Shown: positions 5,188-30,789, counted from the first letter of the stretch. The stretch: DNA of 64,000 nucleotides from Anaerolineae bacterium (GCA_034411995.1 DAOUME010000022.1:3965-67964); one strand, 5' to 3'. Notes: generated from the letters alone by a model not told the origin. Numbers and translations: made by a program.

Positions 5188-5856
5188 TCACTCCCCCACC
5201 GCCGTCTCCGTGGCTCTCGGCGTGGAGACAGCACCAGGGGTGGCGGGCTCTGCGCTCACCGTCGGTCCCGGTGTATCGGTGGGTGTGGGCGTGGGTTTCT
5301 CGGGCGGCTCGCTGATCAGCCGCTCCAGATCCCCGATGGCGGAGGAGGCCACCAGATAGACTTCGCTGCCCCCTTCTCTTTGTACGTAACTGGAGTAACC
5401 AGCGGGGTTCTTGTTCCCGACCAGGAGTACCTGGCTGCCACCGTCTGCCAGGCCAACCTCCACGCGCAGGGCCGGTTCGGCGAGACCGAAGGCCTCCAGA
5501 TCCACATCCTCCCCCTCCACGACTCTCGTGGACTGCATCTGCGACAGGCTCCCCAGGAGCCCCTCAATCCGCGTCGCATCCGCCTCGGCCTCGAGAGGCG
5601 CGGTCAAACGCCACATCCCCTCCGCAAGCCTCCGGACCATCACCGATTCGCTGCTCCTCTGATCGGTCACCTCCAGCGTTACGGCGTCTTCCACTTCGAA
5701 AGAAAACACGGGTACTCTACCCTCTTCCTCGGGCGCCGTCTCCTGGCCGCCCCTCATCTCCAGCACGAAGACCAGTGCCGCCAGGACCACGAAGACGGCC
5801 ACCACTATGATCGTAGTTCGCTGGTGTAATCTCATCGCTGTTACCTTCGCCTCCAC
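5188..5856 (-). CDS. DUF4340 domain protein (accessory component of GldG-type ABC systems)
   Basis: N-terminal TM helix, central DUF4340-like region and a Pro/Thr-rich C-terminal tail; co-oriented with and overlapping the GldG-like gene. The start could be the internal Met (MRLHQ...). Confidence 0.55.
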   Translation of the reverse strand: MEAKVTAMRLHQRTTIIVVAVFVVLAALVFVLEMRGGQETAPEEEGRVPVFSFEVEDAVTLEVTDQRSSESVMVRRLAEGMWRLTAPLEAEADATRIEGLLGSLSQMQSTRVVEGEDVDLEAFGLAEPALRVEVGLADGGSQVLLVGNKNPAGYSSYVQREGGSEVYLVASSAIGDLERLISEPPEKPTPTPTDTPGPTVSAEPATPGAVSTPRATETAVGE

Positions 5857-7373
5857 CAGACCACGGCGCCGACCAGCAGGATTGCCGCCGGCAAGAAGAT
5901 GACGCTGGAGTACTGCAAGAAACGAGCTTGCCCAGGGGACAGGACCAGGACGCGAGACACGGGCGGCTTCGGCCTTATGGAAATCAGCTCCTCTTCCTCA
6001 GCCAACCAGTTCACGCTATTGAGGAAGAGATCGCTGTTTCCTCCCAGCGTCAGGCTGGAGTTGCCGGCAAAATCCGAGTCTCCAAAGACCACCAGGCGCG
6101 TCCCCACGGTCGCCTCTCCTTCGCCCTGAGCCTCCACGCCCATGGCCATGGACAGCGGTCCCGCGGTGTCTGCGCCAACGTCGTACCGGGCTTCCTGCCG
6201 GCGCAGCGCCTCAAAGTCGGTTTCTCCCCAGCTCCCCTCACTGGATTCCACGAGGGCGAGCGCCGTCACCCCCTCCGGCTGCTCCACCGTGCGGGTAATC
6301 GACCTCGCCGTACTCAGCACCACGCCGGGCAAGTCCCGTGTGATTTCGCTGAACCGGAAGCTATCGACCACGGGCGACAGCGGATCGACGCCGAAAAGCC
6401 CTCGCTCAGGATCTATGACCACGTCATCCTCGTACTCCACACCCCACTCGCCCAGCACCTCGCTCAGGGCCGGTTCCTGCCCAGGTTCTTGCATGATCAG
6501 TGCCTTTCCCCCCTGCTGCAAGTAAGCGCTGATAGCCTCGCTCTCCTGCTCCAGCAAGGGAGTGCTGGGCGCCGCCACCACCAGGACAGATGCATCGACG
6601 GGAACGGTGCTGCTGATCGCCAGATTCAGCGTATTGACGACGTAGTTATCTCGCTCCAGGGCATCCCGGATCTCACTGTAGTCAGACTGATCGTACCCAC
6701 CCGGGTCGCGCTCACCGTGTCCGGTGAGGAAGTAGACGACCTTCTGCGAGTCTCGCGATACCTTCAGAAGGGCCCCGGTGATCTCCTGCTCGTCCACCGT
6801 CAAGCTGTCCTGTCTTCTCCCCGCGCACTCGAAGACGATCGTGCCGTATGACGTGATACCATACTGTTGAGCCACAAAGGGCTGCACGTCGGGATCCACG
6901 ACCTCATACGTGATCTTGTCCGTATGGTACACATACTCGGCCAGCAGGTCATCCAGTTCCTGCTGCGCGGGATCGCCCTGCACGAAGAAGGCCGTCACCT
7001 TCACAGGCTCAGTGAGATCAGACAAGATCTGCATCGTCTCAGGCGACAGCGTATAATCCTGAAACTCCGTCAGATCCAGACGTCGATGATGTCGATCCCC
7101 CAGGAAATTGAGGAGAACCAGTATGCCCAGGAAAGCTACGATGGCGATGCCAATGTTGGAGCCATACCTGGCCGCACGCCCAGTGATGGCAGACCTCAAG
7201 GCGTCCGGCCTGGCCGCCACGGACGCCACCAGCAGGATGGCACCCAGCCCCAACAACGCCTCCACGCGCAGGTCCAGCTCTTGGGTCAGTAGATACAGAA
7301 TCACCGCCAAGGTCAGAATAGCCAGCCCGGCGATGCCACCAGGAATAGCCAGGCGTTTCCACCAACCGCGCAT
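5841..7373 (-). CDS. GldG-like ABC transporter auxiliary/substrate-binding component
   Basis: 510 aa with N- and C-terminal TM segments and a large extracytoplasmic domain; lies in the conserved GldA-GldF-GldG order. Confidence 0.6.
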   Translation of the reverse strand: MRGWWKRLAIPGGIAGLAILTLAVILYLLTQELDLRVEALLGLGAILLVASVAARPDALRSAITGRAARYGSNIGIAIVAFLGILVLLNFLGDRHHRRLDLTEFQDYTLSPETMQILSDLTEPVKVTAFFVQGDPAQQELDDLLAEYVYHTDKITYEVVDPDVQPFVAQQYGITSYGTIVFECAGRRQDSLTVDEQEITGALLKVSRDSQKVVYFLTGHGERDPGGYDQSDYSEIRDALERDNYVVNTLNLAISSTVPVDASVLVVAAPSTPLLEQESEAISAYLQQGGKALIMQEPGQEPALSEVLGEWGVEYEDDVVIDPERGLFGVDPLSPVVDSFRFSEITRDLPGVVLSTARSITRTVEQPEGVTALALVESSEGSWGETDFEALRRQEARYDVGADTAGPLSMAMGVEAQGEGEATVGTRLVVFGDSDFAGNSSLTLGGNSDLFLNSVNWLAEEEELISIRPKPPVSRVLVLSPGQARFLQYSSVIFLPAAILLVGAVVWWRRR

Positions 7374-8084
7374 CTACCTCCACCTCCTCAACTGCAACAT
7401 CTGTACCGACAAGAAGAGAAACCCAGCGGTAGCGCTGAGGTAGAAGATGACGTCTTTGGTATCCACGATACCCCTGAGGAAATCGAAGTAGTGAGCGGAC
7501 ATCGAAAGGTAAGCCACGACATCACCCACAGGAGGGCCAAAGAGGCTTCCTGCGACGTCCACCAGCCAGAGGATGAGCATCGCTCCAAAGGCCAGCAAGG
7601 CTGCCACTACCTGATTTCGACTCAAGGAAGACGTAAACAGCCCAATAGACAAGAACGTCGCCCCCAGCAACGCCAGACCCACATATCCGCCGATGATGGC
7701 ACCTCGATCGGGATTACCGAGGCTGATCATGAGGAGCGGGTAGTATAGAGTCAGGGCCAGCATGACCCCGTAGACACCCAGACCGGCCAGGAACTTGCCC
7801 AGGACCACCTCCCAGTCCCTGACGGGCAGGGTGAGCAACAACTCGATGGTGCCTGACCTCTGTTCTTCGGCCAACAGTCGCATGGTCAGCGCGGGGGTCA
7901 CGAACAGCAAGGTGACCGCCATGTTGGCAAAGACTCCCCTCAGCGAGGCCTCTCGGGTATAGTAGACGATCAGCGAGAAGAAGAACCCCATGATCGCCAG
8001 AAAGGCAGCGATCACCACGTAGGCGATGGGGGATGCAAAATAGGCGTGCAGCTCTTTGCGGGCGATGACGACCATGTTCCTCAT
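7374..8084 (-). CDS. ABC-2 family permease (GldF-like)
   Basis: 236 aa, six predicted TM helices; stop/start abutting the upstream ATPase gene. Confidence 0.7.
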   Translation of the reverse strand: MRNMVVIARKELHAYFASPIAYVVIAAFLAIMGFFFSLIVYYTREASLRGVFANMAVTLLFVTPALTMRLLAEEQRSGTIELLLTLPVRDWEVVLGKFLAGLGVYGVMLALTLYYPLLMISLGNPDRGAIIGGYVGLALLGATFLSIGLFTSSLSRNQVVAALLAFGAMLILWLVDVAGSLFGPPVGDVVAYLSMSAHYFDFLRGIVDTKDVIFYLSATAGFLFLSVQMLQLRRWR

Positions 8085-9026
8085 TTAGGCAGCCTCCTCT
8101 CCCTTGTGCGCTTCCTCTTCCGTGGTCAACCTCAGGAAGATGTCTTCCAGCGTGAGCCCCAGCGGGCGCAGCTCCAGCAAGCCCCAACCCTGCTGAACCA
8201 CCAGAGAGGAGATCTCGGCACGGGGGTCCAGTCCGGCGCCGCACGCGACCACGTACTGGCCGTCTCCGCTGGTCTCCACGCCCGTCACACCCTCTATGGC
8301 GCCCACGAGTCTCACCACGTCTGGAGATGGATCCCGCACCTGAACCAGGACACGCCGAGCCTGCTCGAGCTTCGATCCCAACTCCTCGGGAGTGCCCTCA
8401 GCGGCTATCTCCCCCTCGTTGATGATCACCAACCGATTGCAGACCTCGCTGGCCTCGGGAAGGATGTGGGTACTGAGAATGACAGTGTGACTTCCTCCCA
8501 GACCCTTGATCAGTTGCCGCACCTCGCGGATCTGTCTGGGATCCAACCCGATGGTTGGCTCATCGAGGATGAGCACCTGGGGATCGTGGACCAGAGCCTG
8601 GGCCAACCCCACTCGCTGGCGATAGCCCTTGGAAAGTCTGCCGATCAAGGCGCCTGCGAAGTCGGTGAGATCGCACGTATCCATGATCTCCTCGATGCGC
8701 CGGCGACCATCGCTCACGTGGCGAATGCTGGCCACGAAGCTCAGGTACGAGGACACCGTCATCTCCGGGTAGAGAGGGACCATCTCGGGCATGTATCCGA
8801 TGCGCTTCCTCACCTCGAGAGAATCCTCCCAGACGTCGAACCCGGCGACGCGGGCCGTTCCAGCGCTGGGAGGCATGAAGGCAGTGAGAATGCGCATCGT
8901 GGTGGTCTTGCCCGCCGCGTTGGGACCCAGGAAAGCCAGGATCTCGCCGTCCTCGACTCGAAAACTCACGTCCTTGATCGCTGCGAAGCTCCCATAGTAC
9001 TTGGTGAGGCCCTCAACCTCTATCAT
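8085..9026 (-). CDS. ABC transporter ATP-binding protein (GldA-like)
   Basis: Walker A GPNAAGKTT, signature LSKGYRQRVGLAQAL, Walker B LILDEPT. The start was moved to the internal ATG (MIEVEGLTKYYG), which has a GGAGGA RBS. Confidence 0.8.
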   Translation of the reverse strand: MIEVEGLTKYYGSFAAIKDVSFRVEDGEILAFLGPNAAGKTTTMRILTAFMPPSAGTARVAGFDVWEDSLEVRKRIGYMPEMVPLYPEMTVSSYLSFVASIRHVSDGRRRIEEIMDTCDLTDFAGALIGRLSKGYRQRVGLAQALVHDPQVLILDEPTIGLDPRQIREVRQLIKGLGGSHTVILSTHILPEASEVCNRLVIINEGEIAAEGTPEELGSKLEQARRVLVQVRDPSPDVVRLVGAIEGVTGVETSGDGQYVVACGAGLDPRAEISSLVVQQGWGLLELRPLGLTLEDIFLRLTTEEEAHKGEEAA

Positions 9027-9262
9027 CTTTATCCTCCACTGGTGCTGGCCAGTCCTCAAATAGAGTGAAAGCACAAGGCTCGGCTCTCCGTCGCGTCACC
9101 ATGTGCTTCCCACCATGCGTTCTGTCAGCGCCGATATTACGGCACAAGCGGCACAGTGTCAAGTCACCAACAACTCAGGGTACCTCCGTCCTTCGGGGCG
9201 ATGGTCGAAATAGTATGCCCACCGCGGTGCGGGGCATCGGCCGCTCCGGGTCATCAGGGATC

Positions 9263-10663
9263 TCAGATGGCAGCCTTGTCTCGGAAGAATGTGAAGAACG
9301 TCTTGATAATGATCTTCAGGTCGAACAGGATCGACCAGTTCTCTATGTAGTAAAGGTCGTACTTGGTCCTCGTCACGATGGACGTGTCGCCCCTGAGACC
9401 GTTGACCTGAGCCCAGCCGGTCATCCCTGCCTTTTCCTGGTGCCGCTCGACGTAGCGGGGGATGATCTGCTTGAACTGCTCCACGAACACGGGCCGCTCG
9501 GGCCTGGGTCCTACCAGGCTCATCTCCCCGAGGAAGACGTTGATGAACTGGGGCAACTCATCGAGAGAATAGCGCCTTATGAACGCACCCAGTCTGGTCC
9601 GTCGCGGATCGCCCTTGACGGCCCACACTGGTCCTGTGTCGTTCTCCGCTCCCTCCTTCATCGATCTGAACTTGATCATCCGGAACGGCTTCTCGTCCAG
9701 TCCCATGCGCTCCTGGGTGTAGAAGGCAGATCCCGGAGAATCGAGCTTGATGAGCAGTGCGACGAGCACCATTAGCGGCGAAAGTATGACCAGGCCCACA
9801 GCGCTGCCGGTGATGTCCATGGCCCGCTTGAGAGTCAGTCTCCAGCCCCTGAGCACGGTATCCCTCACCGTCAGCAGCGGCAGGCCGCCCAGATGGCCAA
9901 TGCTCAGATCGGACGTGATGAGCTGGAACGCACTGGGATAGACCCTGGTGGCCACCCTCGCTCGGTGGCAATCGGAGATGATGGGCAAGATCTCACGGCT
10001 GGCCGCGTCCGGCAGGGCAATGATCACCTCATCGATGCGCTCCGAGCGTATCAAGGAAAGCAGCTCGTCAGTGGTTCCCAGAGTCGGGACTCCAAGGTCC
10101 ACACTCTGCTGCGAAGCCTGGCTCACCATCCCCACTACCGCGTACCCCAGGCCGGGCAGCCTGCGCATAGCCTGCAATACCATGCGCCCGGTCTCTCCCG
10201 TGCCCACGATGAGCACCCTGGCCCCGCCGACACCTCTGCTCTGGAGGCTCCATATCAAGCGGCTGTAAACCAACCGACCGAGCGTCACCAGGACGATGGT
10301 CAGCAACCAGCAGAAGACGATCATCCGCCTCGAGTAGTCGGGCCCGTTCCTGATGAGAAACGAGTTGGCCGCCACGGAGATGATGGTCCCCACAGAGACG
10401 GCCACGAAGACGGAGTAGAACTCATCCACGTGAGACAAGCCCCGCTGCCGGTGGTACAACCTGGAGAAGAAAAACACCGAGACCAGGGTCAGCACCTGGA
10501 TGACGATCACACTCGCGTAACCCCGCAAAGAGCCGAGTTCGGCCGGGGTCAGCCGCTCGGTCCACAGCCTCAGGTAGTAGGTGAAGACGAAGGCCAGGAC
10601 CATCATCGCCATGTCGATGATCACCAGGAGTCCTGCGAACAGCACCGCGCTCTTGCCCTTCAC
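9263..10663 (-). CDS. Polyprenyl-phosphate sugar phosphotransferase (WbaP/CpsE-like bacterial sugar transferase)
   Basis: N-terminal TM segments, a Rossmann-like linker and a C-terminal Bac_transf domain (KFRSM...DELPQFINVFLGEMSLVGPRPE). GTG start with GGAGG RBS, chosen to avoid overlap with the upstream GT2 gene. Confidence 0.8.
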   Translation of the reverse strand: MKGKSAVLFAGLLVIIDMAMMVLAFVFTYYLRLWTERLTPAELGSLRGYASVIVIQVLTLVSVFFFSRLYHRQRGLSHVDEFYSVFVAVSVGTIISVAANSFLIRNGPDYSRRMIVFCWLLTIVLVTLGRLVYSRLIWSLQSRGVGGARVLIVGTGETGRMVLQAMRRLPGLGYAVVGMVSQASQQSVDLGVPTLGTTDELLSLIRSERIDEVIIALPDAASREILPIISDCHRARVATRVYPSAFQLITSDLSIGHLGGLPLLTVRDTVLRGWRLTLKRAMDITGSAVGLVILSPLMVLVALLIKLDSPGSAFYTQERMGLDEKPFRMIKFRSMKEGAENDTGPVWAVKGDPRRTRLGAFIRRYSLDELPQFINVFLGEMSLVGPRPERPVFVEQFKQIIPRYVERHQEKAGMTGWAQVNGLRGDTSIVTRTKYDLYYIENWSILFDLKIIIKTFFTFFRDKAAI

Positions 10664-10665
10664 CA

Positions 10666-11556
10666 CTAAGCCTCCGCAGCCGTCTGTTCTCCCTCCAGGC
10701 GCACCATCTCTCGCAGCATCCTCCTCCCGCCGCGCAACGCCAGCCCTCCGAGAACCAGATAGTGAGCCCACGACGGAGTCGTTTCGGCATAATGCTTGCG
10801 ATAGAAGATGTACATCGCGCGCCAGAACTCGTAGTTGGCCTTGTCCCTGTTCTGCTCGCTGGCCTTTCGCTTGTAGTGGAGCACAGTCACTTCGGGATAG
10901 TAATAGACCTTCCAGCCAGCCTGCTTGGCCCGAAGAGCCCAGTCCAAGTCCTCAGCGTACATGAAGTAGGACTCGTCCAGACCGCCCACCTGCTCGATGA
11001 CCTCCCCGCGGACTATCATAAACGCGCCCACCACCGAGTCTACCTCAGCCGTCTCGTCGGGGTCAAGATACGTCAGGTTGTACCGTCCGAAGCGCTTGCT
11101 CTTGGGGAAGAGATGGCTCAAACCGAACAGCTTGTAGAAGGAGTTCTCCACGGTCGGGAAACTGCGCCGGCAAGCCAGGTCCAAACTCCCGTCGGCCAGG
11201 ACCAGCTTGGGGCCCGCCATGCCGGCCTCAGGGTGGGTATCCATGAACTCCAGCATCTGCTCGAGGGCGTGCGGAGGAAGCACTGTGTCGCTGTTCAGCA
11301 AGAGGTAGTAGCGCGCGTGGAAGCGCCGCAACCCCAGGTTGTTCGCGTAGGCGTAGCCACCATTGATCTCACTCTCGATGACGTGCACCTGGGGGAACTC
11401 GTGTCCCACCATGGCACAGCTCCCGTCGCGAGAGCAGTTGTCCACGACCACGGTTTCGAAGGTGAACAAACCTTCGCTCTCGTATACGGACTTCAGGCAA
11501 TCCCGCAGCAGCTCTCGGGTATTCCAGTTGACGATGACGATCGAGAGATCACGCAT
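10666..11556 (-). CDS. Family 2 glycosyltransferase
   Basis: [18 protein letters not shown]...[10 protein letters not shown] is a typical GT2 N-terminus; contains a DxD-like motif. Confidence 0.8.
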
Positions 11557-11625
11557 GGTAAGCTACCGAAGACAGCCGTTCCACTGGGCCCGGCACAGGA
11601 TCATCCAGACGGAGGCACAGAAGCC

Positions 11626-12294
11626 TCACTCGGGGGCCGTATCCTCCCCCCGTTCTCCCACCGCCGATAGCACCCTCTGGAGCATGAGTGGTTCAGGCAC
11701 CATCCCGTCCACGAAGGTGGTCTGGTTGATCACGGTACGCGGCACACCGCGGACTTGATAATTGATTGCCAACTGGGGAAACTCGGTGGCCTCCACCATG
11801 TCTGCGGTAACGTAATCACTCTCCACCGCCATCCTGTGCGTCAGCACGACCGCGCTGGGGCAGTATGGTCAAGTAGGAGTGACGAAAACCTGAAAGTGGA
11901 TCGCTTCATCTATCCCCGCCAGCGCCTTCCTCGTGGCCTCGCACAACCTGGACTGTCCGGAGGAGACCGCCTTGATGGCCTCGATCAAAGAGACGAACTC
12001 GTAACCTGAGGGTATGCCATAGAAACGTACCCCGTAATCCCTCTCACCCACGACGGCGATGGCCGGGATCTTGTCTATGCCATACTCATCGACCTCGTCC
12101 TTGTCCGTGGCGAAATCGTAGATCTCGGCCTCCACCTTGTCGGACAGAGAGGCCAGCTCCTCCACCAGCTCGTGCGTTTCGGCGCAGAAGTCGCATTCCA
12201 AGTTCTGCGTGAACATCAACAGCCGCACCGGGCTCACCAGCTCGGCCAGTTGCTTGCCGACCTCCTTCCTGTCCTCATCCCTCAGCATGGGCAT
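11626..12294 (-). CDS. Two-domain thioredoxin-fold protein (Pyrococcus PDO / glutaredoxin-like family), candidate selenoprotein with in-frame TGA (Sec) at 11869-11871
   Basis: ORF 11869..12294 ends ...HFQVFVTPT-TGA. Reading straight through in the same frame gives PYCPSAVV and then the 11626..11847 ORF (LTHRMAVESDY...). The first domain has a CDFC motif. The second site therefore reads TPT-U-PYC, i.e. the canonical CPYC with Sec replacing the first Cys. Confidence 0.6.
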
Positions 12295-12327
12295 GACTTT
12301 CCCTCCTCGTCCAAGGGGACACGGCCC

Positions 12328-13095
12328 TCACCGCCGACTCGCCGCTGGCTTCCTGCCCAGGGCCCAGAAATGGGGCATGAAGAACAGACGCGATCCGTCC
12401 TGGAGAGCCTTCCACGCCCGGTTCCGATACCCCCGCAGTAAGGCTCCGTCGGCGACGTTGTCCAGCGTCTCGAAGATGAAATCCCATTCTGCATCGAACT
12501 CCTCCGAGAGCTGCCGGTCGTCCCAAACAGAGCCGATAATCCCCGCTTGCGCCACCAGCCCGGCGCCCGAGAGAAGCGCCTTCAAGCGCCGGCCGAGGCG
12601 AGGATTCGCCCCCTCGCGGCGCAGCGACTCCTCCATCAGCGGGCCCAGCTCAATGTCTTCTGGATAGTCTATCCGTCCCCCGTAGTCAGGCTCCGTCGTG
12701 GCCAGGACCGCGCCACCCTCCTTGACCACGCGAGCCATCTCCTGCACTACCAACGCCGGGCTCTCCACCCACAACAACAGGTAGCTGCACACCACCAGGT
12801 CGAAGCTCCCGTCTCGGAACGGCAACTGCTGGGCATCTCCCACCAGCCAGTCCACATCCGAGATCCAGGCGGCCGCAAACCTGATCACGGACGGGTCCAG
12901 ATCGAGACCCGTCACCCTCCCTCGGGTTCGCTGCGCGATCTCTGCGGTCACGGCCCCGGTGCCGCAGCCGACGTCGAGCACCCTCTCCGCGCCCCACAGT
13001 CCCGCCTGGCGATAGAGATGAAAACGTGTTTCCTGGGTCCAGTGAGCCTGCCGCTGGAACTGCCGATGCCATTGCTCAACGGTGAGGCTCACCAA
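12328..13095 (-). CDS. Class I SAM-dependent methyltransferase
   Basis: VLDVGCGTGAVTAEIAQ motif I, DLVVCSYLLLWV motif; 255 aa. Confidence 0.75.
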   Translation of the reverse strand: MVSLTVEQWHRQFQRQAHWTQETRFHLYRQAGLWGAERVLDVGCGTGAVTAEIAQRTRGRVTGLDLDPSVIRFAAAWISDVDWLVGDAQQLPFRDGSFDLVVCSYLLLWVESPALVVQEMARVVKEGGAVLATTEPDYGGRIDYPEDIELGPLMEESLRREGANPRLGRRLKALLSGAGLVAQAGIIGSVWDDRQLSEEFDAEWDFIFETLDNVADGALLRGYRNRAWKALQDGSRLFFMPHFWALGRKPAASRR

Positions 13096-13158
13096 TGTCG
13101 CTCCATCCTGCCTGCCGATGGCCCCCGTACGGAAGAGCCGATGATCACGAAGAGCGAT

Positions 13159-14532
13159 CTAGACCGCGGTTGACGTGCTCTCGACGCACAGGGCACCCTG
13201 GTTCTTCAGGTACAGGGGGCACCCACCACCACACAGCGGCAGCTCATCGCAGGAACGACATTTCTCCATCACCCAGTCCCTGTTCCTGAGACTCACCGCC
13301 TCCTCATGATTCCAGATGGAACCCCAGTCGTCTCGAAGTATGTTCCCCAGGCTCGAATAGTAGCTCTGGCAGGGAATGACGTCCCCGTTGGGCTCGACGC
13401 ACATGTTGTACCTGGCGGCCGTACAGAACTTGGCTCCCAACTCCAGATCCACCGGATGGAACTCACAATACTGCGTCGGCGTGTACCAGATGAGCCTCAT
13501 CCCCTCAGCGATCGCCTTGTCGCGCACCCTGACCATGAGACCTTCCAGCTCTGTTTCCAGGATGCCGATGCCGCTGGAGGGCCCCTTCCCAGAATAGATG
13601 AGACTGTTGCAGGCAAAGGTCTCGATCCCCAGCTCCTTCAGGAACTCTATGGTCCGCTCGAACTGCGGAGCGTTCAGAGTGGTCAGCGTGCTATTGGTGA
13701 TCGTATAGACGTCCGTGGCGACCGCGTTCTTGATGCCCTGCACCGTCTGCTTCCAGACCTCTGCCCCCACCATCCGGTTGTGGATCGCCTCGTCGTGAGA
13801 CTCCAGCGTGATCTGAATGTGGTCCAACCCCGCGTCCACCAGCTCTTCAAGGTACCCTTCGTCCGCCAGCTTGATGCCGTTGGTTAGCAGACCAGCGACC
13901 AGCCCCACGTCCTCGGCGTGCCGAACCAGCTCGACCAGGTCGGGGTACAGGGTCGCCTCTCCCCCGGTGAAGACCACGTGCGGTATGCCCAGGTCCCACA
14001 GCTTGTCGATAACCTGTTTCCACTCCGCCGTGGTCAGGCTCTCCATATCCCTGGGGCGGCCAACGTAGCAGTGCCCGCAGTCAGCGTTGCACCTGTAGGT
14101 GAGCGCCAGGTCCATACGGTAGGGCGCCGAGACAGGTGTGTTGAAGGGTTCGATCCTCTGTACGTCCAGATACGAGATGGGGCACACGTTGTCGGTGGTA
14201 GCCAGGGTGAAGATGGTGTCTTTCAGGTGCTCGTAATCCTCGCGCAGCCTGGCCGTCGACGCTTTGTAACGCCTCTTCAGCTCTCTGACCGCCTCATCTG
14301 TGTCTTTGCCCTCGACGAGCAGCTTGGCATGCTCGGTGGCCGTCTTGTTGAGGTGCAAGACCTTCGCGGCGTTGACCACCAGGATACCCTCGCCGTTATC
14401 CTCCACCCGCAAATGGATCCGGAATCGCTGGTCAGCACCATCCGGAGTCATGTAATGGAACATGCCCTTCTCCAAGGGTTCGGGTGCCGTAGGAAAGAAG
14501 GTGTCCTTCAAAGACCGCCAAACGCTCATCAC
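13159..14532 (-). CDS. Radical SAM / SPASM-domain enzyme with N-terminal PqqD-like RRE domain (putative peptide-modifying maturase)
   Basis: CNADCGHC (CxxxCxxC) after an about 115 aa N-terminal region resembling PqqD/RRE (VLHLNKTATEHAKLLVEGKDTDEAVRELKRRY). C-terminal Cys-rich SPASM region (CVEPNGDVIPCQ...CRSCDELPLCGGGCP). Confidence 0.7.
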   Translation of the reverse strand: MMSVWRSLKDTFFPTAPEPLEKGMFHYMTPDGADQRFRIHLRVEDNGEGILVVNAAKVLHLNKTATEHAKLLVEGKDTDEAVRELKRRYKASTARLREDYEHLKDTIFTLATTDNVCPISYLDVQRIEPFNTPVSAPYRMDLALTYRCNADCGHCYVGRPRDMESLTTAEWKQVIDKLWDLGIPHVVFTGGEATLYPDLVELVRHAEDVGLVAGLLTNGIKLADEGYLEELVDAGLDHIQITLESHDEAIHNRMVGAEVWKQTVQGIKNAVATDVYTITNSTLTTLNAPQFERTIEFLKELGIETFACNSLIYSGKGPSSGIGILETELEGLMVRVRDKAIAEGMRLIWYTPTQYCEFHPVDLELGAKFCTAARYNMCVEPNGDVIPCQSYYSSLGNILRDDWGSIWNHEEAVSLRNRDWVMEKCRSCDELPLCGGGCPLYLKNQGALCVESTSTAV

Positions 14533-14637
14533 ACGCCCTCCGCCCGTTTTCTAGAATGTCGCAGCGCCCTCGTCACTCCGCGACCCCGACGGTGCCCTGG
14601 CCCGTCGACATCGTGCGCGCATCCCTCTACTTCCGCT

Positions 14638-14666
14638 AGTATACCATAGAGGATAGTCTCAAGCAA
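14638..14666 (-). promoter_or_regulatory. Sigma70-like promoter for the radical-SAM operon (-35 TTGCTT, 17 nt spacer, -10 TATACT on minus strand)
   Basis: Minus-strand TTGCTTgagactatcctctatggTATACT about 100 nt upstream of the radical-SAM start; GGAGGG RBS before the ATG. Confidence 0.45.
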
Positions 14667-14669
14667 AAG

Positions 14670-14701
14670 AGGCCGCCTCAACAGAGACTGAGGCGGCCTC
14701 C
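14670..14701 (-). terminator. Rho-independent terminator downstream of the SIMPL gene
   Basis: Perfect 12-bp inverted repeat GAGGCCGCCTCA-acagagac-TGAGGCGGCCTC, followed on the minus strand by TCTTTTGCTT. Confidence 0.6.
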
Positions 14702-14737
14702 GATGTTTCCCGCGAGCGCGTTGCTCCAGGGAGACTA

Positions 14738-15478
14738 TTAGCGAATGTCGAAGGTGACCTGGACCTGCACCGAGACCTCCAACTGGCCCGGCTGCACCGG
14801 CGCCGCACCTCCGCCTATCGCTCTCTCCGCGGTAGCGTAGATCGGCTCCAGATAGTACGGTGGCGACTCCGTGAAGGATTCGTTGATGTACCGGGGTCTC
14901 CCCAGCCCTACACCAGCCAACTGAGCCAGCGCCTCTGCCTTGTCTCGCGCCTGAGCCATCGCGTCGGCCCTGGCCTCTTCACGTAGCGCTGTGGGATCAT
15001 CGAACGTGAACCGGATGCCGTAGATGTTATTGGCTCCCGCCCCGGTCGCCGCATCCAGTACGTCTCCCGCCTTGTCTACCTCTCGCAGTTTCACCACCAC
15101 GGAGTTGTCGACCACGTAGCCGATGACCCGCTGCTCGTCGTCCTCCCAGTCGATCTCAGCCCGGACGCTGTAATCCACCGTCTGGACGTCCTCCTCAGCG
15201 ACTCCCAGCTCCAGGATCGCAGCCATCACGTCGGCCATCCGCTCGTCGTTCTCCGCGGCCGCCGCCCGGGCTTCTGCATTCCTCGTCTCCACCCCGATGG
15301 TGATCATGGCCAGATCTGGTTTCGCCGTCGCTTTTCCCTGGGCCATGACTGTGATGCCGGTCGGCTCTGTCACACCGCCCGACGGGCTAGGCACCGCCAC
15401 CACCATCAACTGAAGCACCAGCACGACAGCCACTAGGACCAGGCCCACTGCACCCACGACGATACCTGCTTTGGACAT
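14738..15478 (-). CDS. SIMPL-domain (DUF541) protein
   Basis: N-terminal TM/signal, then the SIMPL-like pattern (VETRNAEARAAAAENDERMADVMAAILELGV...DYSV...GYVVDNSVVVKL). Confidence 0.65.
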   Translation of the reverse strand: MSKAGIVVGAVGLVLVAVVLVLQLMVVAVPSPSGGVTEPTGITVMAQGKATAKPDLAMITIGVETRNAEARAAAAENDERMADVMAAILELGVAEEDVQTVDYSVRAEIDWEDDEQRVIGYVVDNSVVVKLREVDKAGDVLDAATGAGANNIYGIRFTFDDPTALREEARADAMAQARDKAEALAQLAGVGLGRPRYINESFTESPPYYLEPIYATAERAIGGGAAPVQPGQLEVSVQVQVTFDIR

Positions 15479-15621
15479 CTCGACTTGCCCTCCTTACAGA
15501 CTTGGTCTGATCGCGCCCCAAAAGCGCGTCTCTCTCAGCATGTAGACGACGCGGAGAGGAAGAAGGTTCCCCAGCCCCAGGGAGGAGCGAGAAACAAGAG
15601 CGGAGGCTAGCACCATACCAC

Positions 15622-15650
15622 AAAAAAGGCCCCAGCTCACGCCGGGGCTC
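15622..15650 (-). terminator. Rho-independent terminator after tRNA-Leu
   Basis: GC hairpin (GAGCCCCGGCGTGAGCTGGGGCC on minus strand) followed by TTTTTT. Confidence 0.5.
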
Positions 15651-15660
15651 CCATGCTCAG

Positions 15661-15744
15661 TGCCGAGAAAGGGACTCGAACCCTTACGGGGTTACCCCCA
15701 CTGCGCCCTGAACGCAGCGCGTCTACCTGTTCCGCCACCTCGGC
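15661..15744 (-). tRNA. tRNA-Leu(CAG): tRNA-Leu (anticodon CAG), type II with long variable arm
   Basis: Minus-strand sequence GCCGAGGTGGCGGAACAGGTAGACGCGCTGCGTTCAGGGCGCAGTGGGGGTAACCCCGTAAGGGTTCGAGTCCCTTTCTCGGCA folds with a 7-bp acceptor stem, D-arm, anticodon loop TTCAGGG (anticodon CAG), long variable arm and T-loop GGTTCGAGTCC; CCA is not encoded. Confidence 0.85.
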
Positions 15745-15789
15745 ACGGCACCTGAAGCCAGTATATACTCACTGGACCCGTTTGTCAAG

Positions 15790-17442
15790 TCATTCCTGCG
15801 GCTCCTCGCTGACCACCATTCTCCGGGTCTTGATGTACCACTGGCTGACGGTACGGAAGCGATCGCTGGGGTCGACGAGGGGACTCAACTGCACGCCGTT
15901 CACCATCTCGTCGACCGCGTAGTTGTACACCGGGTAGTAGAGCAGCAAGGCCGGCACCTCGTCGGCGAATAGATCCTGGAAGTCCCGGTACAGTTCGGCT
16001 CGTTCGGCTTGATCGGTGCTCTGGCGGCCCTGCTCCAGGAGCTGGTCGATGTCCACGTTGTTTAGGCCGCCATAGTTCTGCCCCTCCCCACCAATCTGCG
16101 TCGAGTGCCACATCAAGTAGGGGTCAGGATCGCTGGGCAGATTGCCCCAACTGAACAACAGCGCATCGAAGTTGCGGGGTCGAAGGGCCTCGTTCACCAC
16201 CCAGGCGCTGTCTTCCACGACGGGCACTACTCTGACTCCCACCTCCCACAGTTGGCGGGCGATCTCTTCGATGATCTGTCGACGCAGAGGGTCCTTGTTG
16301 GTAAGCAGGTTGAACTCCAGCCTGACCTGCTCCTTCTCGCGAACACCGTCATGATCGCTGTCCACCCAGCCGGCCTCCGTCAGCAATTCAGCGGCCTTGC
16401 CCGGATCGTAGGTGTACTGGTGGACATCGTGGTTGTACGCCCAGGAGTCAGGCATGATCGGGGTGTGGGCCACGATGCCCTGCCCGTCGAGGATGCTATC
16501 GATGATACCCTGGCGGTCGATGCCCCACAGCAACGCCTGCCGCACCTCCTTGTCTTCGAAGATGGGCAGGTCGAGATTGAGAAAGATCAACGTGTAGCCG
16601 GACAGACGCGCGGTGTACAGGTTCAGGTACTCCTCCTCCCGCACCTTGGGCAGGTCCTCCGGCAAGACCTCGCTGATGCCCTCCACCTCGCCTTGCTGAT
16701 AGGCGGTGAAGATGCTCTGGTTGTCCGGATAGAACTTGAACTCGATCTTCGAGAGGAGAGGTTGCTCGCCGTAGTAGTCCGGGTTGGCCTCCAGGATCAC
16801 GTAGTCGGTGCTGACCTCACTGATCTTGAACATGCCCGTCCCCACGGGGCGCACGCTGAACTGATCTCCCGGCAGGTCGCCGGCCGGAACGCTGGCCAGC
16901 ACGTGCTCCGGAAGCATGCCCACCGTCGTGTAATCCAGGAACGTGGCCAGCGGGGCCTGCAAGGTGAACGTGACGGTGTAGTCGTTGATCTTCTCGGCGA
17001 CCACCGTGCGCCACAGCTCGGCCAGTTCAGGTGGGCCCTGGTAGTCCTCATCCTGCATGGCGCTTACCGTGAACAGCACGTCATCTGCCGTGAACGCCTC
17101 CCCATCGTGCCAGACCACGTCCCTGCGCAGATAAAAGGTGTACACCAGGCCATCGTCAGACAAGTCCCAGTCCCTGGCCAGAGCAGGCACGATCTCGCCA
17201 CGCTCGTTGAGGTCGGTGAGACCCGAGAAGATGAGGGAGACCAGATCGGTGTCGACCTGGTTGTACTGACAGAGGATGGGGTTGATGTAGCTGGGGCGTC
17301 CGGCGACGCCCTCCACGTAGGTGCCACCGGCGTCAGGGACGACCACGGTGGTGGTGGTGTACGCGACATACCACAGGAGCAGAATGATCAGCGCCACGCC
17401 TACGATGGCGATGACAGCTTGCCAGCGGATATGTCTCGTCAA
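15790..17442 (-). CDS. ABC transporter substrate-binding protein, family 5 (OppA/DppA-like)
   Basis: 550 aa, N-terminal TM anchor, SBP_bac_5-like pattern (YTFYLRRDVVWHDGEAFTADDVLFT). Confidence 0.8.
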   Translation of the reverse strand: MTRHIRWQAVIAIVGVALIILLLWYVAYTTTTVVVPDAGGTYVEGVAGRPSYINPILCQYNQVDTDLVSLIFSGLTDLNERGEIVPALARDWDLSDDGLVYTFYLRRDVVWHDGEAFTADDVLFTVSAMQDEDYQGPPELAELWRTVVAEKINDYTVTFTLQAPLATFLDYTTVGMLPEHVLASVPAGDLPGDQFSVRPVGTGMFKISEVSTDYVILEANPDYYGEQPLLSKIEFKFYPDNQSIFTAYQQGEVEGISEVLPEDLPKVREEEYLNLYTARLSGYTLIFLNLDLPIFEDKEVRQALLWGIDRQGIIDSILDGQGIVAHTPIMPDSWAYNHDVHQYTYDPGKAAELLTEAGWVDSDHDGVREKEQVRLEFNLLTNKDPLRRQIIEEIARQLWEVGVRVVPVVEDSAWVVNEALRPRNFDALLFSWGNLPSDPDPYLMWHSTQIGGEGQNYGGLNNVDIDQLLEQGRQSTDQAERAELYRDFQDLFADEVPALLLYYPVYNYAVDEMVNGVQLSPLVDPSDRFRTVSQWYIKTRRMVVSEEPQE

Positions 17443-17943: not shown

Positions 17944-19746
17944 ATGGACCAGGAAAGAATCAGGAACTTCTCCATCATCGCACACATCGATCACGGCAAG
18001 TCCACCCTGGCGGACCGCCTGCTGGAGTACACAGGCACTATCTCCCCCCGGGAGATGGCCGATCAGGTCCTGGACCAGATGGACCTGGAGCGCGAGAAGG
18101 GCGTGACCATCAAGTCCTCCGCCGTGCGCATGCGCTACCAGGCCGACGATGGCCAAGAGTACGAGCTCAACCTCATCGACACGCCGGGCCACGTGGACTT
18201 CACCTACGAGGTCTCCCGGGCCCTGGCGGCCTGCGAAGGCGCCGTCCTGGTGGTGGATGCCACCCAGGGGGTGGAAGCGCAGACTCTGGCCAACCTCTAC
18301 CTGGCCCTGGAGCACGATCTGGCCATCATCCCCGTGGCCAACAAGATCGACCTGGAAAGCGCCCGCCCGGAGGATGTGGCGCACGAGCTGGAAGAGCTGC
18401 TGGGCATCCCGGCGGAGCAGGTGCTGCGAACCTCGGCACGAGAAGGGATAGGGACCAAGGGTGTCCTGGAGGCCATCGTCAGGGCCGTCCCGCCGCCCCA
18501 GGGTCATTCTGAAGCCCCCCTGCGCGCTCTCATCTTCGACTCCCACTACGACCCGTACAAGGGCGTGGTGGCCTACGTGAGGATCGTGGACGGCCAGCTA
18601 AGGGGTCACCAGCGACTCGAGCTTATGTCAAACGAGCGGGCCTTCGAGCCTCTGGAGATCGGTGTCTTTACACCAGGAATGAGACCCACATCTGAGCTGG
18701 CCACCGCCGAAGTGGGATACATCGCCACCGGCCTCAAGAACGTCCGGGACTGCTCCGTGGGCGATACGATCACCACCGCCACAGACTCCGCCCAGGAGCC
18801 GCTCCCCGGATACCGGCCCATCAAGCCCATGGTCTTCGCCGGACTCTATCCCGCGGAAGCTGAAGACTATCACCTGTTGAGGGATGCCCTGGACAAGCTG
18901 CACCTCAACGATGCTTCGCTCTCCTACCAGCCAGAGGACTCCCAGGCTCTGGGCTTCGGCTTTCGCTGCGGGTTTCTGGGCCTCTTCCACATGGAGATCG
19001 TCCAGGAACGGTTGGAGAGGGAATACGGCCTCAGCCTCCTGGCCACGGCGCCCAGCGTGGAATACCACGTCCTGACCGGGGACGGCGAGCTGATCGAAGT
19101 CGACCGCCCCGCTGATCTGCCGGCACCGGTGGACATCGAGTCTATCGAGGAGCCGTGGGTCAAGATCAGCGTCTTCAGTCCCGAGGACTACATCGGCCCC
19201 ATCATGGAGCTGGTCACTTCCCGGCGCGGCGAGTACGAGTCCATGGAATACCTGGACCCTCAGCGGGTGCTGCTCACCTACCAGATGCCTTTGGGCGAGA
19301 TGATCGTGGAGTTCTACGACCAGCTCAAGTCTCGCACCAGGGGATACGCCTCTCTCGACTACGCCCTGTCTGGCTACCGGCCTGGGGACCTGGTCAGGCT
19401 CGACGTGCTGGTGAACAATCAGGCGGTGGATGCGTTGTCCCTGATCACCCACAGGGACCAGGCCTACGGCAAGGGCAGCTTGCTGGTCAAGAAGCTGAAG
19501 GAGGTGATCCCCCGGCAGTTGTTTCCCGTGCCGATTCAGGCCGCCGTGGGCAGCCACGTCATCGCTCGCGAGACGGTGAAGGCGCTGCGCAAGAACGTGC
19601 TGTCCAAGTGCTACGGCGGCGACGTGACCCGCAAACGGAAGCTGCTGGAGAAGCAGAAGGCCGGAAAGAAGAGAATGAAGAAGATCGGCCAGGTGAACAT
19701 CCCCCAGGAAGCGTTCATGGCCGTCTTGAACCTGTCGGAAGAGTAG
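17944..19746 (+). CDS. lepA: Elongation factor 4 (LepA)
   Basis: [35 protein letters not shown] GTPase motifs and the LepA C-terminal domain; 600 aa. Confidence 0.95.
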
Positions 19747-19764
19747 GAACAGCCAGAGCAGGCC

Positions 19765-21198: not shown

Positions 21199-22373
21199 AA
21201 GCCAGAGCTCTTCCGGGGGGTTACAGCCCCACTTTCTACCTGGCCTTCCTGTCCTGCTTTCTCTTCTTCAGCAGTATTCACTTGCTGATCACACCGCTGC
21301 CCACCTACATCGAGGCCCTGGGAGGGGGCCCGGTCCACGTCGGGCTGGCCGGGACGACCTTCGCCCTGGCGGCCCTCGTCCTCCGCCCCTGGATGGGCCG
21401 CCTGGTGGACACTCGAGGGCGCAAGATAGCCCTGCTCATCGGAACGGCCGTCTTCACCGTAGGGCCTCTGTGCTACATTGTGACCACCACCCTGCCCGCC
21501 TTTCACCTGGCGCGGGTCTTCCACGGCATCGGCATCGCCGCGTTCACCAGTGCGTACTTTGCCCTCATCGCCGACGTCACGCCGCCCGCCCGCTGGGGTG
21601 AAGCCCTGGGACTGGCCGGCGTCGCCGCCTCTCTCTCCGTGATCATCGCCTCACCCGCAGGGACGGCGCTCCTCGAACACACCAGCCATCGACTGGTCTT
21701 CGTCGCCTCCAGCCTGACGGCACTGGCCAGCTTCGCCGTCGCCCTTTCCATCCACGAGTCCAGACGGGCGGTCGTCGCCTCCCAGAGCCTGGATTCCAGC
21801 CAAGAGGGCCTGCTCGACGTGATCAAGCTGCCTGGCGTGAGCGCACCGTCCATGGTCACTCTGGCCCTGGGGCTGAGCTACGGCGCGGTCTACTCCTTCC
21901 TGCCCCTCTTTGCCCGAGATCGCAACCTGGGCAACGTGGGGTTCTTCTTCACCGGCCTGAGCCTCTCCATGGTGGTCTCCCGATCCATGGGCGGACGGGT
22001 GTCGGACAGGCTGGGCCGCCTCCCTGTGATCCTGCCCATGGGTGGCCTCCTGGCCCTCAGCCTGGCGGGCCTCAACTGGACCTACGCCTTCGGCACGCTC
22101 ATGCTCATGGCCGTCTTTCATGGCTTGGGCTTCGGGGGCGCCCGGGTGGTCCTGGAGACCATGGTCGTGGACAGCGCACCGGCCAGGGTGAGAGGAAGGG
22201 CCTTGAGTATCGTGTACTTCTGTTTCGACACCGGCCTGGCCGCCAGCGGGCTGTTGTTGGGGCCGGTCATCGATCTGGCGGGATACGGGATGGCCTTCCT
22301 CTTGGTGGGTGGTGTCTGCGTCCTCGCTCTGATCCTCTTCGCGGCGGCCATGAGGCGGGCAGAGACCGCCTAG
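21195..22373 (+). CDS. MFS transporter
   Basis: 392 aa, 12 predicted TM helices, MFS motif GRLVDTRGRK between TM2 and TM3; start overlaps the upstream stop (ATGA). Confidence 0.8.
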   Translation: MKARALPGGYSPTFYLAFLSCFLFFSSIHLLITPLPTYIEALGGGPVHVGLAGTTFALAALVLRPWMGRLVDTRGRKIALLIGTAVFTVGPLCYIVTTTLPAFHLARVFHGIGIAAFTSAYFALIADVTPPARWGEALGLAGVAASLSVIIASPAGTALLEHTSHRLVFVASSLTALASFAVALSIHESRRAVVASQSLDSSQEGLLDVIKLPGVSAPSMVTLALGLSYGAVYSFLPLFARDRNLGNVGFFFTGLSLSMVVSRSMGGRVSDRLGRLPVILPMGGLLALSLAGLNWTYAFGTLMLMAVFHGLGFGGARVVLETMVVDSAPARVRGRALSIVYFCFDTGLAASGLLLGPVIDLAGYGMAFLLVGGVCVLALILFAAAMRRAETA

Positions 22374-30679: not shown

Positions 30680-30789
30680 GCGGACGGCGCAGCTGGTCGA
30701 GCCGCACATCCGCTGGTAGGCGCGATGGCCCCGAATCTCGCAATCAGGGCAACCCAATGGGCAGCTAGGTTCGACAGCCGGCCGCGGCC

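Follow-up and report, generated by a model that had tools for sequence, protein, structure and literature searches.

A radical SAM–methyltransferase pair in Anaerolineae as the candidate enzyme half of a split protein-modification system

Introduction

An RRE-fused SPASM enzyme is usually taken to mean that a strain makes its own small peptide natural product. The 64-kb stretch of Anaerolineae DNA analysed here (the window) encodes such a radical SAM enzyme (rSAM) in a block of five genes. A preliminary description, made from the sequence of the window, had suggested that these genes could together make a glycosylated or methylated peptide or a modified polysaccharide, with no precursor peptide in view. 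This raises the question of what the enzyme acts on, and which of its neighbours act with it.

Results

Organization of the locus

The five-gene block first described at 9263–14666 is borne out in all minus-strand ORFs and domain calls (Table 1). From the promoter onwards, the genes encode the RRE–rSAM–SPASM enzyme, a class I methyltransferase, a protein disulfide oxidoreductase (PDO), a family 2 glycosyltransferase (GT2) and a sugar-phosphotransferase. The genes are separated by gaps of 63, 33 and 69 nt and one overlap, and a terminator scan revealed no strong terminator between them; they probably form a single operon. The promoter proposed earlier is also upheld, as its TGGTATACT is unchanged in six related genomes in which the surrounding sequence has diverged, and it lies just downstream of the terminator of the SIMPL/DUF541 gene, which is the 5' boundary of the operon. 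The stem of this terminator covaries among relatives (GCCGCC/GGCGGC versus GCCATC/GATGGC). The promoter was not listed by a generic scan because its −35 element agrees with the consensus at only 3 of 6 positions. For the rSAM, the likely start codon is the ATG at 14529 rather than position 14532; translation of the phosphotransferase probably begins near 10660, given that its orthologues are called at 465 aa.

Table 1. Positions of genes and signals, counted from the first nucleotide of the window
Feature	Position (nt)	Strand	Details
Intrinsic terminator of the upstream SIMPL/DUF541 gene	14668–14701	−	15-bp stem, then a T run
Promoter	14638–14666	−	TTGCTT (14661–14666), 17-nt spacer, extended −10 TGgTATACT (14638–14646)
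RRE–radical SAM–SPASM enzyme	13159–14532	−	457 aa as longest ORF
RRE of the rSAM	14197–14475	−	About aa 20–112; Pfam PqqD and AlphaFold model
Class I SAM-dependent methyltransferase	12328–13095	−	Pfam Methyltransf_11/25
Two-domain PDO selenoprotein	11626–12294	−	CDFC in domain 1, U-PYC in domain 2
In-frame UGA read as selenocysteine	11869–11871	−	...VTPT-U-PYC...; frame unbroken across TGA
SECIS-like hairpin CAGCGC-GGUC-GUGCUG	11842–11857	−	6-bp stem, GGUC loop, begins 11 nt past the UGA
GT2	10666–11556	−	Pfam Glyco_tranf_2_3 and Glycos_transf_2
Polyprenyl-phosphate hexose-1-phosphate transferase (WcaJ/EPS initiating type)	9263–10771	−	Bac_transf and CoA_binding_3

The radical SAM enzyme

Pfam assigns to the rSAM a Radical_SAM domain (95 bits), a SPASM domain (43.6 bits) and a PqqD domain (PF05402; 25.9 bits, only marginally above the cutoff of 23.4), the last of which is also recorded in most homologues. 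The presence of a PqqD-like RRE, as first proposed, is further supported by the AlphaFold model, in which residues 23–112 form four strands (23–61) followed by three helices (63–112), with a pLDDT of about 72–92 per 10-residue block. The best Foldseek match of the full-length model is the RRE-bearing SuiB (446 columns). The CX3CX2C motif (C148/C152/C155) is invariant in 63/63 homologues, and the linker residue C117 and the SPASM cysteines C370-X12-G-X4-C388 and C425-X2-C428-X5-C434-X3-C438 are likewise invariant; C449 is present in 50 of the 63, and C356 and C378 also lie in the SPASM region. The preliminary description had asked whether the domain carries one or two sets of auxiliary-cluster cysteines; the full set found here, CX12GX4C...CX2CX5CX3C...C, would suffice for two clusters.

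The closest solved relatives by sequence are the peptide maturases SkfB (1.6e-27) and PqqE (2e-26). In the HMM classification that had also been suggested, no named equivalog is matched at its cutoff. The top NCBIfam match is PqqE (139.7 bits versus a cutoff of 381), and the other named SPASM equivalogs (MftC, SkfB, AlbA, StsB, GeoRSP, ScmE, SbtM, ACGX and NirJ/Ahb) score at most 118 bits versus cutoffs of 265–850. The nearest models, PqqE, NirJ and Ahb-type, all below cutoff, are in part those of tetrapyrrole enzymes. Taken together, the RRE, the SPASM domain and the relatives SkfB, PqqE and SuiB support a peptide-type substrate. Orthologues of 50–65% identity occur in Anaerolineae, Caldilineae, deltaproteobacteria, Planctomycetota, Acidobacteriota, Coatesbacteria and Bathyarchaeia, a degree of cross-phylum conservation that a strain-specific RiPP maturase would not usually show. 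Conservation of the RRE between the window's clade and outside lineages (55.5%) matches that within the latter (53.6%).

The conserved neighbourhood of the rSAM

Our small-ORF scan of 9000–15800 found no Cys-rich or conserved small ORF, in agreement with the earlier observation, and no conserved small ORF occurs near the rSAM in any lineage among 80 orthologous loci, where only antisense shadows turned up. The 12-aa mini-ORF is located in the 5'UTR, which shows no conservation. Every ORF lying up to 7 kb from the rSAM was clustered at 81 loci, namely the window and 80 related genomes of bacteria and Bathyarchaeia with an orthologous rSAM. A membrane protein described below, B560, was found at 61/81 loci, a zinc-ribbon protein at 53/81, the methyltransferase at 39/81 and a Cys-less rSAM paralogue at 21/81; GT2 was found at only 8/81 and the PDO at only 6/81. 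The methyltransferase, for which there is no NCBIfam equivalog, adjoins the rSAM in 30 of the 58 genomes from other clades than that of the window, which supports the partnership suggested in the preliminary description. The PDO, GT2 and phosphotransferase accompany the rSAM only in Anaerolineales relatives of 81–88% rSAM identity, apart from one further locus with GT2. Because the five-gene synteny is limited to this range, it reflects shared ancestry and gives no independent evidence of coupling. Of the five operon genes, only the rSAM and the methyltransferase appear, from these neighbourhoods, to belong together.

The phosphotransferase matches TIGR03025 (472 bits; cutoff 296) and TIGR03023 (461 bits; cutoff 411) over its full length; these families denote initiators of lipid-carrier glycans, and its assignment as a peptide glycosyltransferase was rejected. 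An assignment of GT2 as the mycofactocin glycosyltransferase MftF, its best NCBIfam match, was likewise rejected (66.9 bits versus a cutoff of 280, partial match). Both sugar-transfer genes thus seem to lie next to the rSAM and the methyltransferase without being related to them.

The single five-gene pathway of the preliminary description, leading to a methylated or glycosylated RiPP or an rSAM-modified polysaccharide with its precursor elsewhere or overlooked, accordingly loses its footing with the confinement of the PDO, GT2 and phosphotransferase to close relatives, and we regard it as quite unlikely. The genes do share a strand, short gaps and a single conserved promoter with no internal terminator, the synteny of the block extends to all close relatives, and MftF heads the matches of GT2. 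However, this synteny carries no independent weight, the MftF score is far from its cutoff, the phosphotransferase is a polyprenyl-phosphate initiator that does not act on peptides, the operon and its flanks hold no precursor, and the rSAM has other partners in 50 or more other lineages.

The selenoprotein PDO

When U is replaced by C, the PDO matches TIGR02187 'PDO_seleno_TRX' with 275.5 bits, above the cutoff of 185. The codon is TGA in the window and at six related loci (L005, L007, L009, L010, L088 and L089) and TGT (Cys) at L008, and the downstream frame is conserved in all 8 orthologues. The SECIS-like hairpin, which appears in the consensus fold, is retained in 7/7 TGA orthologues (−6.0 to −8.9 kcal/mol), whereas the TGT orthologue has a degraded form (−3.2). 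The hairpin reaches a shuffle z-score of only −1.5, shows no compensatory double changes among the orthologues and has no Rfam match at the gathering threshold; the only tRNA within the window is a tRNA-Leu. The codon pairing and the conserved frame bear out the Sec-thioredoxin candidate put forward earlier, and the PDO is well supported as a genuine selenoprotein of the known family TIGR02187. Bacterial glutaredoxin-like and thioredoxin selenoproteins have been known since at least 2007 (PMC1914089).

A membrane protein with a Cys–Ala tail

Outside the window's clade, the gene directly upstream of the orthologous rSAM usually encodes B560, a membrane protein of ~560 aa with no Pfam or NCBIfam match. 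B560 is predicted to carry a signal peptide and an extracytoplasmic beta-sandwich, joined through one TM helix to a helical domain in the cytoplasm, followed by an invariant VTLPTLPGAAFA strand–helix motif, a Ser/Gly linker and a near-invariant C-terminal tail, ...CACACACAGCACACAGGGR, of the form ...(CA)nG(CA)nGGGR. Since the TM helix is followed by RRK, the tail is placed in the cytoplasm. Among the 55 loci outside the window's clade with at least 2.5 kb of upstream sequence, the CA tail is found in 49–50, and in 44/55 it ends no more than 400 nt upstream of the rSAM on the same strand. The B560 family comprises 438 clusters at 50% identity (E ≤ 1e-30), and 135 of 150 representatives have five or more Cys among their C-terminal 30 residues. 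The gene preceding B560 encodes the zinc-ribbon protein, which has 126 aa, two TM segments and a CXXC...CXXC zinc ribbon. The B560 tail is the only conserved Cys-rich candidate substrate, and the missing precursor is better explained by this tail than by a small peptide.

Gene adjacency is in itself no proof of an enzyme–substrate relation, and the tail could be a metal- or Fe-S-binding element. Along these lines, the tail might be a metallothionein-like CXC module for metal or Fe-S that the rSAM matures, loads or is regulated by. Alternating CXC motifs, present in the tail, are classic metal ligands, and the companion protein carries a CXXC...CXXC zinc ribbon; however, the catalytically complete CX3CX2C site is strictly conserved, and we know of no precedent for an RRE-SPASM enzyme as a metal loader, which makes this alternative highly improbable in our estimate.

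The rSAM could also be a cofactor-, tetrapyrrole- or lipid-modifying SPASM enzyme working with the methyltransferase, its PqqD-like domain having another role and B560 being a membrane partner. NirJ2, AhbD, AhbC and MoaA do rank among its top NCBIfam matches besides PqqE and MftC, GDGT-MAS and BlsE are among its PDB relatives, and its very high cross-phylum conservation resembles that of housekeeping enzymes. Yet all of these NCBIfam scores are far under the family cutoffs, the best solved relatives are SkfB, PqqE and SuiB, the RRE fold is predicted with good confidence, and the sole universally linked neighbour has an invariant Cys-rich tail, a typical SPASM target. We consider such a non-peptide role very unlikely.

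B560 and the zinc-ribbon protein are absent from the 64-kb window (regex, tblastn and HMM searches, filters off) and from the 10–21 kb around the rSAM of six close relatives. Zinc-ribbon/B560 pairs without the rSAM are found at two related loci (L085 and L086), and the rSAM without B560 at five (L013, L028, L041, L047 and L061), so that split arrangements exist in other lineages as well. We infer that B560 is the substrate of the rSAM and is encoded elsewhere in this genome. A competing account holds that B560 was lost in the window's clade and that the rSAM and the methyltransferase serve a substrate peculiar to the clade, perhaps a protein on which the Sec-PDO also acts. The absence of B560 within 10–21 kb in seven clade genomes, in all of which the rSAM, methyltransferase and PDO genes are contiguous, is consistent with such a loss. 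It is nevertheless unlikely, as the RRE and all invariant residues are kept with no sign of relaxed constraint, split loci recur in other lineages, and the window offers no alternative Cys-rich candidate.

Discussion

On balance, we lean slightly towards the view that a single transcription unit here combines three modules with separate functions, with the rSAM and the methyltransferase as the enzyme half of a split protein-modification system. In the first module, these two enzymes would belong to a widespread and so far unannotated system. The chemistry at the tail is what we infer throughout: the RRE would dock onto a conserved segment of B560, probably the strand–helix motif, and the cysteines of the tail would come up to the SPASM auxiliary clusters. 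Next, a Cys-directed modification would be driven by the 5'-deoxyadenosyl radical; the most likely outcome is thioether bonds of the sactionine or ranthionine type that cross-link the cysteines to adjacent Ala/Gly carbons. The methyltransferase would then methylate the product. In the window genome and its close relatives, the system would be split, the genes for B560 and the 126-aa zinc-ribbon protein lying outside the 64-kb window. The second module would be the PDO, an independent thiol-disulfide oxidoreductase with selenocysteine in its second CXXC site; in the third, GT2 and the phosphotransferase would start a lipid-linked glycan and be neighbours by descent only. The more specific proposal is that the rSAM and the methyltransferase form the catalytic half and that the RRE-SPASM enzyme rewrites the almost invariant (Cys-Ala)n...CACACAGGGR C-terminus of B560, with a zinc-ribbon membrane partner and, in some lineages, a Cys-less pseudo-rSAM, in an as yet undescribed system shared by many anaerobic bacteria and Bathyarchaeia and split here; we hold this to be evenly poised. 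Several points count against our best explanation: no more than about half of the genomes have the methyltransferase alongside the rSAM, the nearest NCBIfam models include those of tetrapyrrole enzymes, the PqqD score is marginal, and B560 and the zinc-ribbon protein are missing from the window and from the rSAM surroundings in close relatives.

Conservation from Chloroflexota to Bathyarchaeia and the near-invariant tail point to a physiological protein modification, not an antibiotic. If the proposal is true, the system would yield a cytoplasmic protein tail of a new kind, cross-linked or modified in some other way. The proposal also provides a concrete, testable enzyme–substrate pair for a large family of 'hypothetical proteins'. 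For genome-mining pipelines, it suggests that an RRE-rSAM without a nearby precursor can signify a split system with a protein substrate. Furthermore, the Sec-PDO adds a well-supported Anaerolineales selenoprotein, with a natural Sec/Cys pair among close relatives.

Comparison with known systems

Two products of the operon are ordinary members of known families. The PDO, which combines two units of the thioredoxin fold with Sec at the second CXXC, lies above the curated TIGR02187 cutoff and shows no notable difference from this family. Nor does the phosphotransferase differ notably from the WcaJ/EPS polyprenyl glycosylphosphotransferases (TIGR03023/TIGR03025), which it matches over its full length and above both cutoffs.

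The rSAM stands further from its relatives. PqqE, its best NCBIfam and second-best PDB match, uses a PqqD-type RRE on a peptide; the rSAM falls far below the PqqE cutoff, its RRE is fused to the enzyme, and no pqqA, pqqB or pqqC is found among the adjacent genes. QhpD, the maturase of quinohemoprotein amine dehydrogenase, and anSME are SPASM enzymes whose targets are Cys residues of genuine protein subunits and not of small RiPPs. The rSAM has no sequence membership in either group; anSME is among its structural matches yet lacks an RRE, and no amine dehydrogenase or sulfatase gene is found among the conserved neighbours. The ACGX-repeat system (TIGR04340 rSAM) likewise pairs a SPASM rSAM with a substrate built from short repeats that contain Cys, but the window rSAM scores 63.8 bits versus a cutoff of 400, and B560 is a large membrane protein with CA in place of ACGX as its repeat.

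The SCIFF/ranthipeptide and sactipeptide maturases (CteB, SkfB, AlbA and PapB) share with the rSAM an N-terminal RRE, the CX3CX2C core and a two-cluster SPASM domain, and their substrates have a Cys-rich C-terminal core, as in the B560 tail. PDB 5wgg, which we take to be CteB, matches the rSAM in the sequence search of solved structures, whereas the NCBIfam models of SkfB, AlbA and StsB give 67–83 bits versus cutoffs of 300–850. The sactipeptide and ranthipeptide maturases act on adjacently encoded peptides of 40–60 aa; for the rSAM, the candidate is a tail on a membrane protein of 560 aa that this locus lacks, and the rSAM family, unlike these maturases, is conserved across phyla and domains.

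Organization and boundaries of the probable five-gene operon

Five successive minus-strand ORFs occupy positions 9263–14666 (see table), as the preliminary description had reported together with their promoter. Intergenic spacings are 63, 33 and 69 nt and the final pair overlaps; a terminator scan between the five genes gave no convincing candidate. The promoter lies after the terminator of the SIMPL gene, whose stem covaries in relatives. The extended –10 element is unchanged in six related genomes. The five genes and their promoter are thus borne out. The ~100-nt leader beyond it is not conserved, and the 12-aa mini-ORF formerly noted upstream of the radical SAM gene, which sits in this leader, is dismissed.

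Coordinates of features in the window
Feature	Position	Strand	Details
rSAM (RRE–radical SAM–SPASM enzyme)	13159–14532	–	457 aa; Pfam PqqD + Radical_SAM + SPASM
Class I SAM methyltransferase	12328–13095	–	Pfam
PDO (two-domain protein disulfide oxidoreductase selenoprotein)	11626–12294	–	Single in-frame TGA read through; NCBIfam TIGR02187
PDO TGA codon	11869–11871		
PDO hairpin	11842–11857		6 bp, GGUC loop; 11 nt after the UGA
GT2 (family 2 glycosyltransferase)	10666–11556	–	Fourth gene of five
Polyprenyl-phosphate sugar-phosphotransferase	9263–10771	–	Bac_transf/CoA_binding_3; above TIGR03025 and TIGR03023 cutoffs
Operon promoter	14638–14666		TTGCTT-17-TGgTATACT
SIMPL gene terminator	14668–14701		15-bp stem at gene end, upstream of operon
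SIMPL/DUF541 gene	14738–15478	–	
tRNA-Leu(CAG) unit	15629–15788	–	tRNA 15660–15744; promoter TTGACA-17-TATACT 15760–15788; terminator 15629–15648
GldA-like ABC ATPase, ABC-2 permease, GldG-like protein	5841–9074	–	Promoter-like site TTGACA-17-TAATAT at 9134–9162
LepA and MFS genes	17944–22373	+	

The SIMPL gene is present in one copy in the window, in three tandem copies in the related locus L005 (1973–5194) and in two in the related locus L009 (4296–6004). Between it and the oppA-like gene lies a tRNA-Leu(CAG) gene with a near-consensus promoter and its own terminator. The GldA-like, ABC-2 and GldG-like genes follow the operon immediately, with a promoter-like site of their own, and an ATPase of the GldA-like similarity cluster, a broad ABC-type family, is found near rSAM in 8 loci outside the window clade (the close Anaerolineales relatives).

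rSAM and its family

Pfam recognizes in rSAM a PqqD domain (residues 53–102; 25.9 bits, cutoff 23.4), a Radical_SAM domain (95 bits) and a SPASM domain (43.6 bits). In the AlphaFold model (mean pLDDT 79), residues 23–112 comprise four strands followed by three helices and form an RRE-type winged helix, in agreement with the N-terminal RRE originally proposed. The CX3CX2C motif is made up of C148, C152 and C155. Across 63 homologues, C370-X12-G-X4-C388 and C425-X2-C428-X5-C434-X3-C438 are invariant, as is C117 in the linker between the RRE and the core, and C449 is present in 50. The preliminary description had asked whether the SPASM domain carries one or two auxiliary-cluster Cys sets; rSAM has the complete set for two clusters.

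Foldseek against the PDB places SuiB (446 aligned columns, including its RRE), SkfB and PqqE at the top, and a profile search of PDB sequences returned SkfB first (1.6e-27) and PqqE next (2e-26). By comparison, rSAM reaches no NCBIfam equivalog cutoff: the best match is PqqE (139.7 bits versus 381), followed by pseudo-SAM/Halo, NirJ2, AhbD, GeoRSP and MftC. HMM classification, suggested earlier, thus assigned no named equivalog. Given these scores and its domain and fold relatives, rSAM resembles an RRE-dependent maturase of peptides or proteins, in a family still without a name.

The family has more than 7,500 database matches, with 56–66% identity outside the window clade and an almost uniform length, about 455 aa. 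At least 586 species genomes encode a member, covering the bacterial Anaerolineae, Caldilineae, deltaproteobacteria, Planctomycetota, Acidobacteriota, Actinomycetota, Nitrospirales, Elusimicrobiota, Coatesbacteria and Cloacimonadota and the archaeal Bathyarchaeia. This is a large family, with an unusual degree of conservation.

rSAM is genomically linked to a membrane protein with a Cys-Ala tail

All ORFs of 80 aa or more lying no further than 7 kb from rSAM were clustered across 81 loci (80 genomes and the window). A membrane protein of ~560 aa, B560, is encoded at 61 of these, on the same strand as rSAM and a median of 51 nt upstream. The methyltransferase lies downstream of rSAM at 39 loci, including the window. 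At 21 loci, mostly downstream, we found a ~385-aa rSAM paralogue (for example, L060:11390–12535 and L075:11399–12556) that lacks the CX3CX2C and SPASM cysteines and keeps the PqqD-like domain; it probably serves the system as a pseudo-enzyme or chaperone, and the window lacks it. PDO (6/81) and the phosphotransferase (5/81) are confined to the window and its close relatives, and GT2 (8/81) to these and one other locus. The close relatives (rSAM identity 81–88%) share the entire oppA–SIMPL–rSAM–methyltransferase–PDO–GT2–phosphotransferase–ABC block, which reflects recent common ancestry and is uninformative on function. The preliminary description had suggested that the five genes together could make a modified peptide or polysaccharide; the GT2/phosphotransferase pair is best read as a separate function sharing the transcript.

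The C-terminus of B560 reads ...GG-CACACACAGCACACAGGGR in bacteria and ...SCVCACASCACACACVSCACACAHGGAR in Bathyarchaeia, an almost invariant tail at the end of every B560. Among 55 loci outside the window clade for which 2.5 kb or more of upstream sequence is available, the tail is present in 49–50; at 44 of them its end lies no more than 400 nt upstream of the start of rSAM, and both are on one strand. An exhaustive profile search for B560 (E ≤ 1e-30) yielded 438 clusters at 50% identity; 135 of the 150 best representatives have at least five Cys within the last 30 residues, and nearly all end ...CACACAGGGR. B560 has no match in Pfam, NCBIfam or PDB sequences and is annotated only as 'hypothetical'. 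In its model, a signal peptide and a TM helix with basic residues after it precede an invariant VTLPTLPGAAFA strand–helix element (residues 479–516); a disordered Ser/Gly linker and, last, the tail complete the protein.

Conserved small ORFs beside 80 rSAM orthologues were only antisense shadows of real genes. Since no lineage has a conserved small ORF beside rSAM, the Cys-Ala tail emerges as the sole candidate substrate that is both conserved and Cys-rich, and the strand–helix element would be a natural candidate docking site for the RRE. Literature searches returned nothing relevant on the tail motif, Cys-Ala repeats with radical SAM, the B560 family or the system, nor on RRE/SPASM proteins in Chloroflexota or Bathyarchaeota.

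The window clade lacks a linked B560

Consistent with the earlier remark that no precursor peptide is visible, a small-ORF scan of the operon (12–110 aa, with RBS and Cys scoring) gave nothing credible, and Cys-repeat regexes in six frames had no match across the window. Neither B560 nor its companion, a 126-aa two-TM zinc-ribbon protein, was matched in the window by tblastn or by HMM with filters off. The assemblies carrying unlinked B560 genes (L085 and L086) differ from those of the window-clade rSAMs P0001, P0005, P0013 and P0015. Assignment of unlinked B560s to the clade by B560/rSAM tree congruence was rejected, the nearest rSAM relatives of locus L015 lying outside the clade.

The window-clade rSAM retains every invariant residue, and the similarity of its RRE to outside lineages (55.5%) is on a par with that among those lineages (53.6%). 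Furthermore, LepA and an MFS gene are found close to rSAM both in the window and in distant B560-linked Anaerolineae (L017, L020–L022, L025, L026, L030 and L039), an old synteny that suggests a local rearrangement separated B560 from rSAM in the window clade. From these three observations we infer that the window system is split rather than lost, with B560 elsewhere in the genome.

Elsewhere in the window, about 30000–36500, GC is 0.55–0.59 versus 0.62–0.67 in the flanks and ORF GC3 is low (0.52–0.67); this stretch may be a horizontally acquired island. Translation of 30482–30679 is up to 80% identical over ~35–47 aa to L086:9170–9390, on a contig unrelated to the window that carries an unlinked B560.

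PDO is a well-supported selenoprotein

The in-frame TGA of PDO is translated ...FVTPT-U-PYCPS..., and NCBIfam TIGR02187 'PDO_seleno_TRX' matches the protein at 275.5 bits (cutoff 185) when Cys is substituted. TGA occupies the aligned codon in seven orthologues (the window, L005, L007, L009, L010, L088 and L089) and TGT in L008, and all orthologues compared keep the reading frame beyond it. Every TGA orthologue has the hairpin after the UGA (–6.0 to –8.9 kcal/mol), whereas it is degraded in the Cys orthologue (–3.2). Its GGUC apical loop is the one found in the E. coli fdhF SECIS. Rfam gave neither a SECIS nor a riboswitch hit across the window; the sole tRNA there is tRNA-Leu, and no Sec machinery is visible within the 64 kb. 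Bacterial glutaredoxin-like and thioredoxin selenoproteins have long been known (PMC1914089). TIGR02187 is already marked by NCBIfam as selenoprotein-containing, and the window PDO is a firmly supported yet unremarkable addition to it, best read as a separate function on the shared transcript.

Proposed mechanism and comparison with known systems

Genomic linkage connects rSAM orthologues with a protein whose (CA)n tail is cytoplasmic and, in roughly half of the genomes, with the methyltransferase described above. We propose that the RRE of rSAM would bind B560, and that the tail thiols would engage a SPASM auxiliary cluster; in CteB and other sacti-/ranthipeptide synthases, substrate thiols engage such a cluster. 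H abstraction from neighbouring Ala/Gly carbons could then form thioether cross-links in the tail, and the methyltransferase might cap the cross-linked product. PDB relatives of the methyltransferase include the RiPP methyltransferase LahSB, a generic similarity. Alternatively, the tail might undergo other Cys-directed chemistry or serve in metal binding. The locus points to a candidate domain-spanning, unannotated protein-tail modification system, a lead that can be tested directly.

The window carries the enzyme half only. The adjacent precursor peptide that defines RRE–SPASM RiPP maturases is absent from its locus, and NCBIfam scores place rSAM outside all named SPASM families. The architecture and likely logic of rSAM match those of the RRE–SPASM maturases CteB, SkfB, AlbA and PqqE, while action on a real protein would recall both QhpD and anSME.
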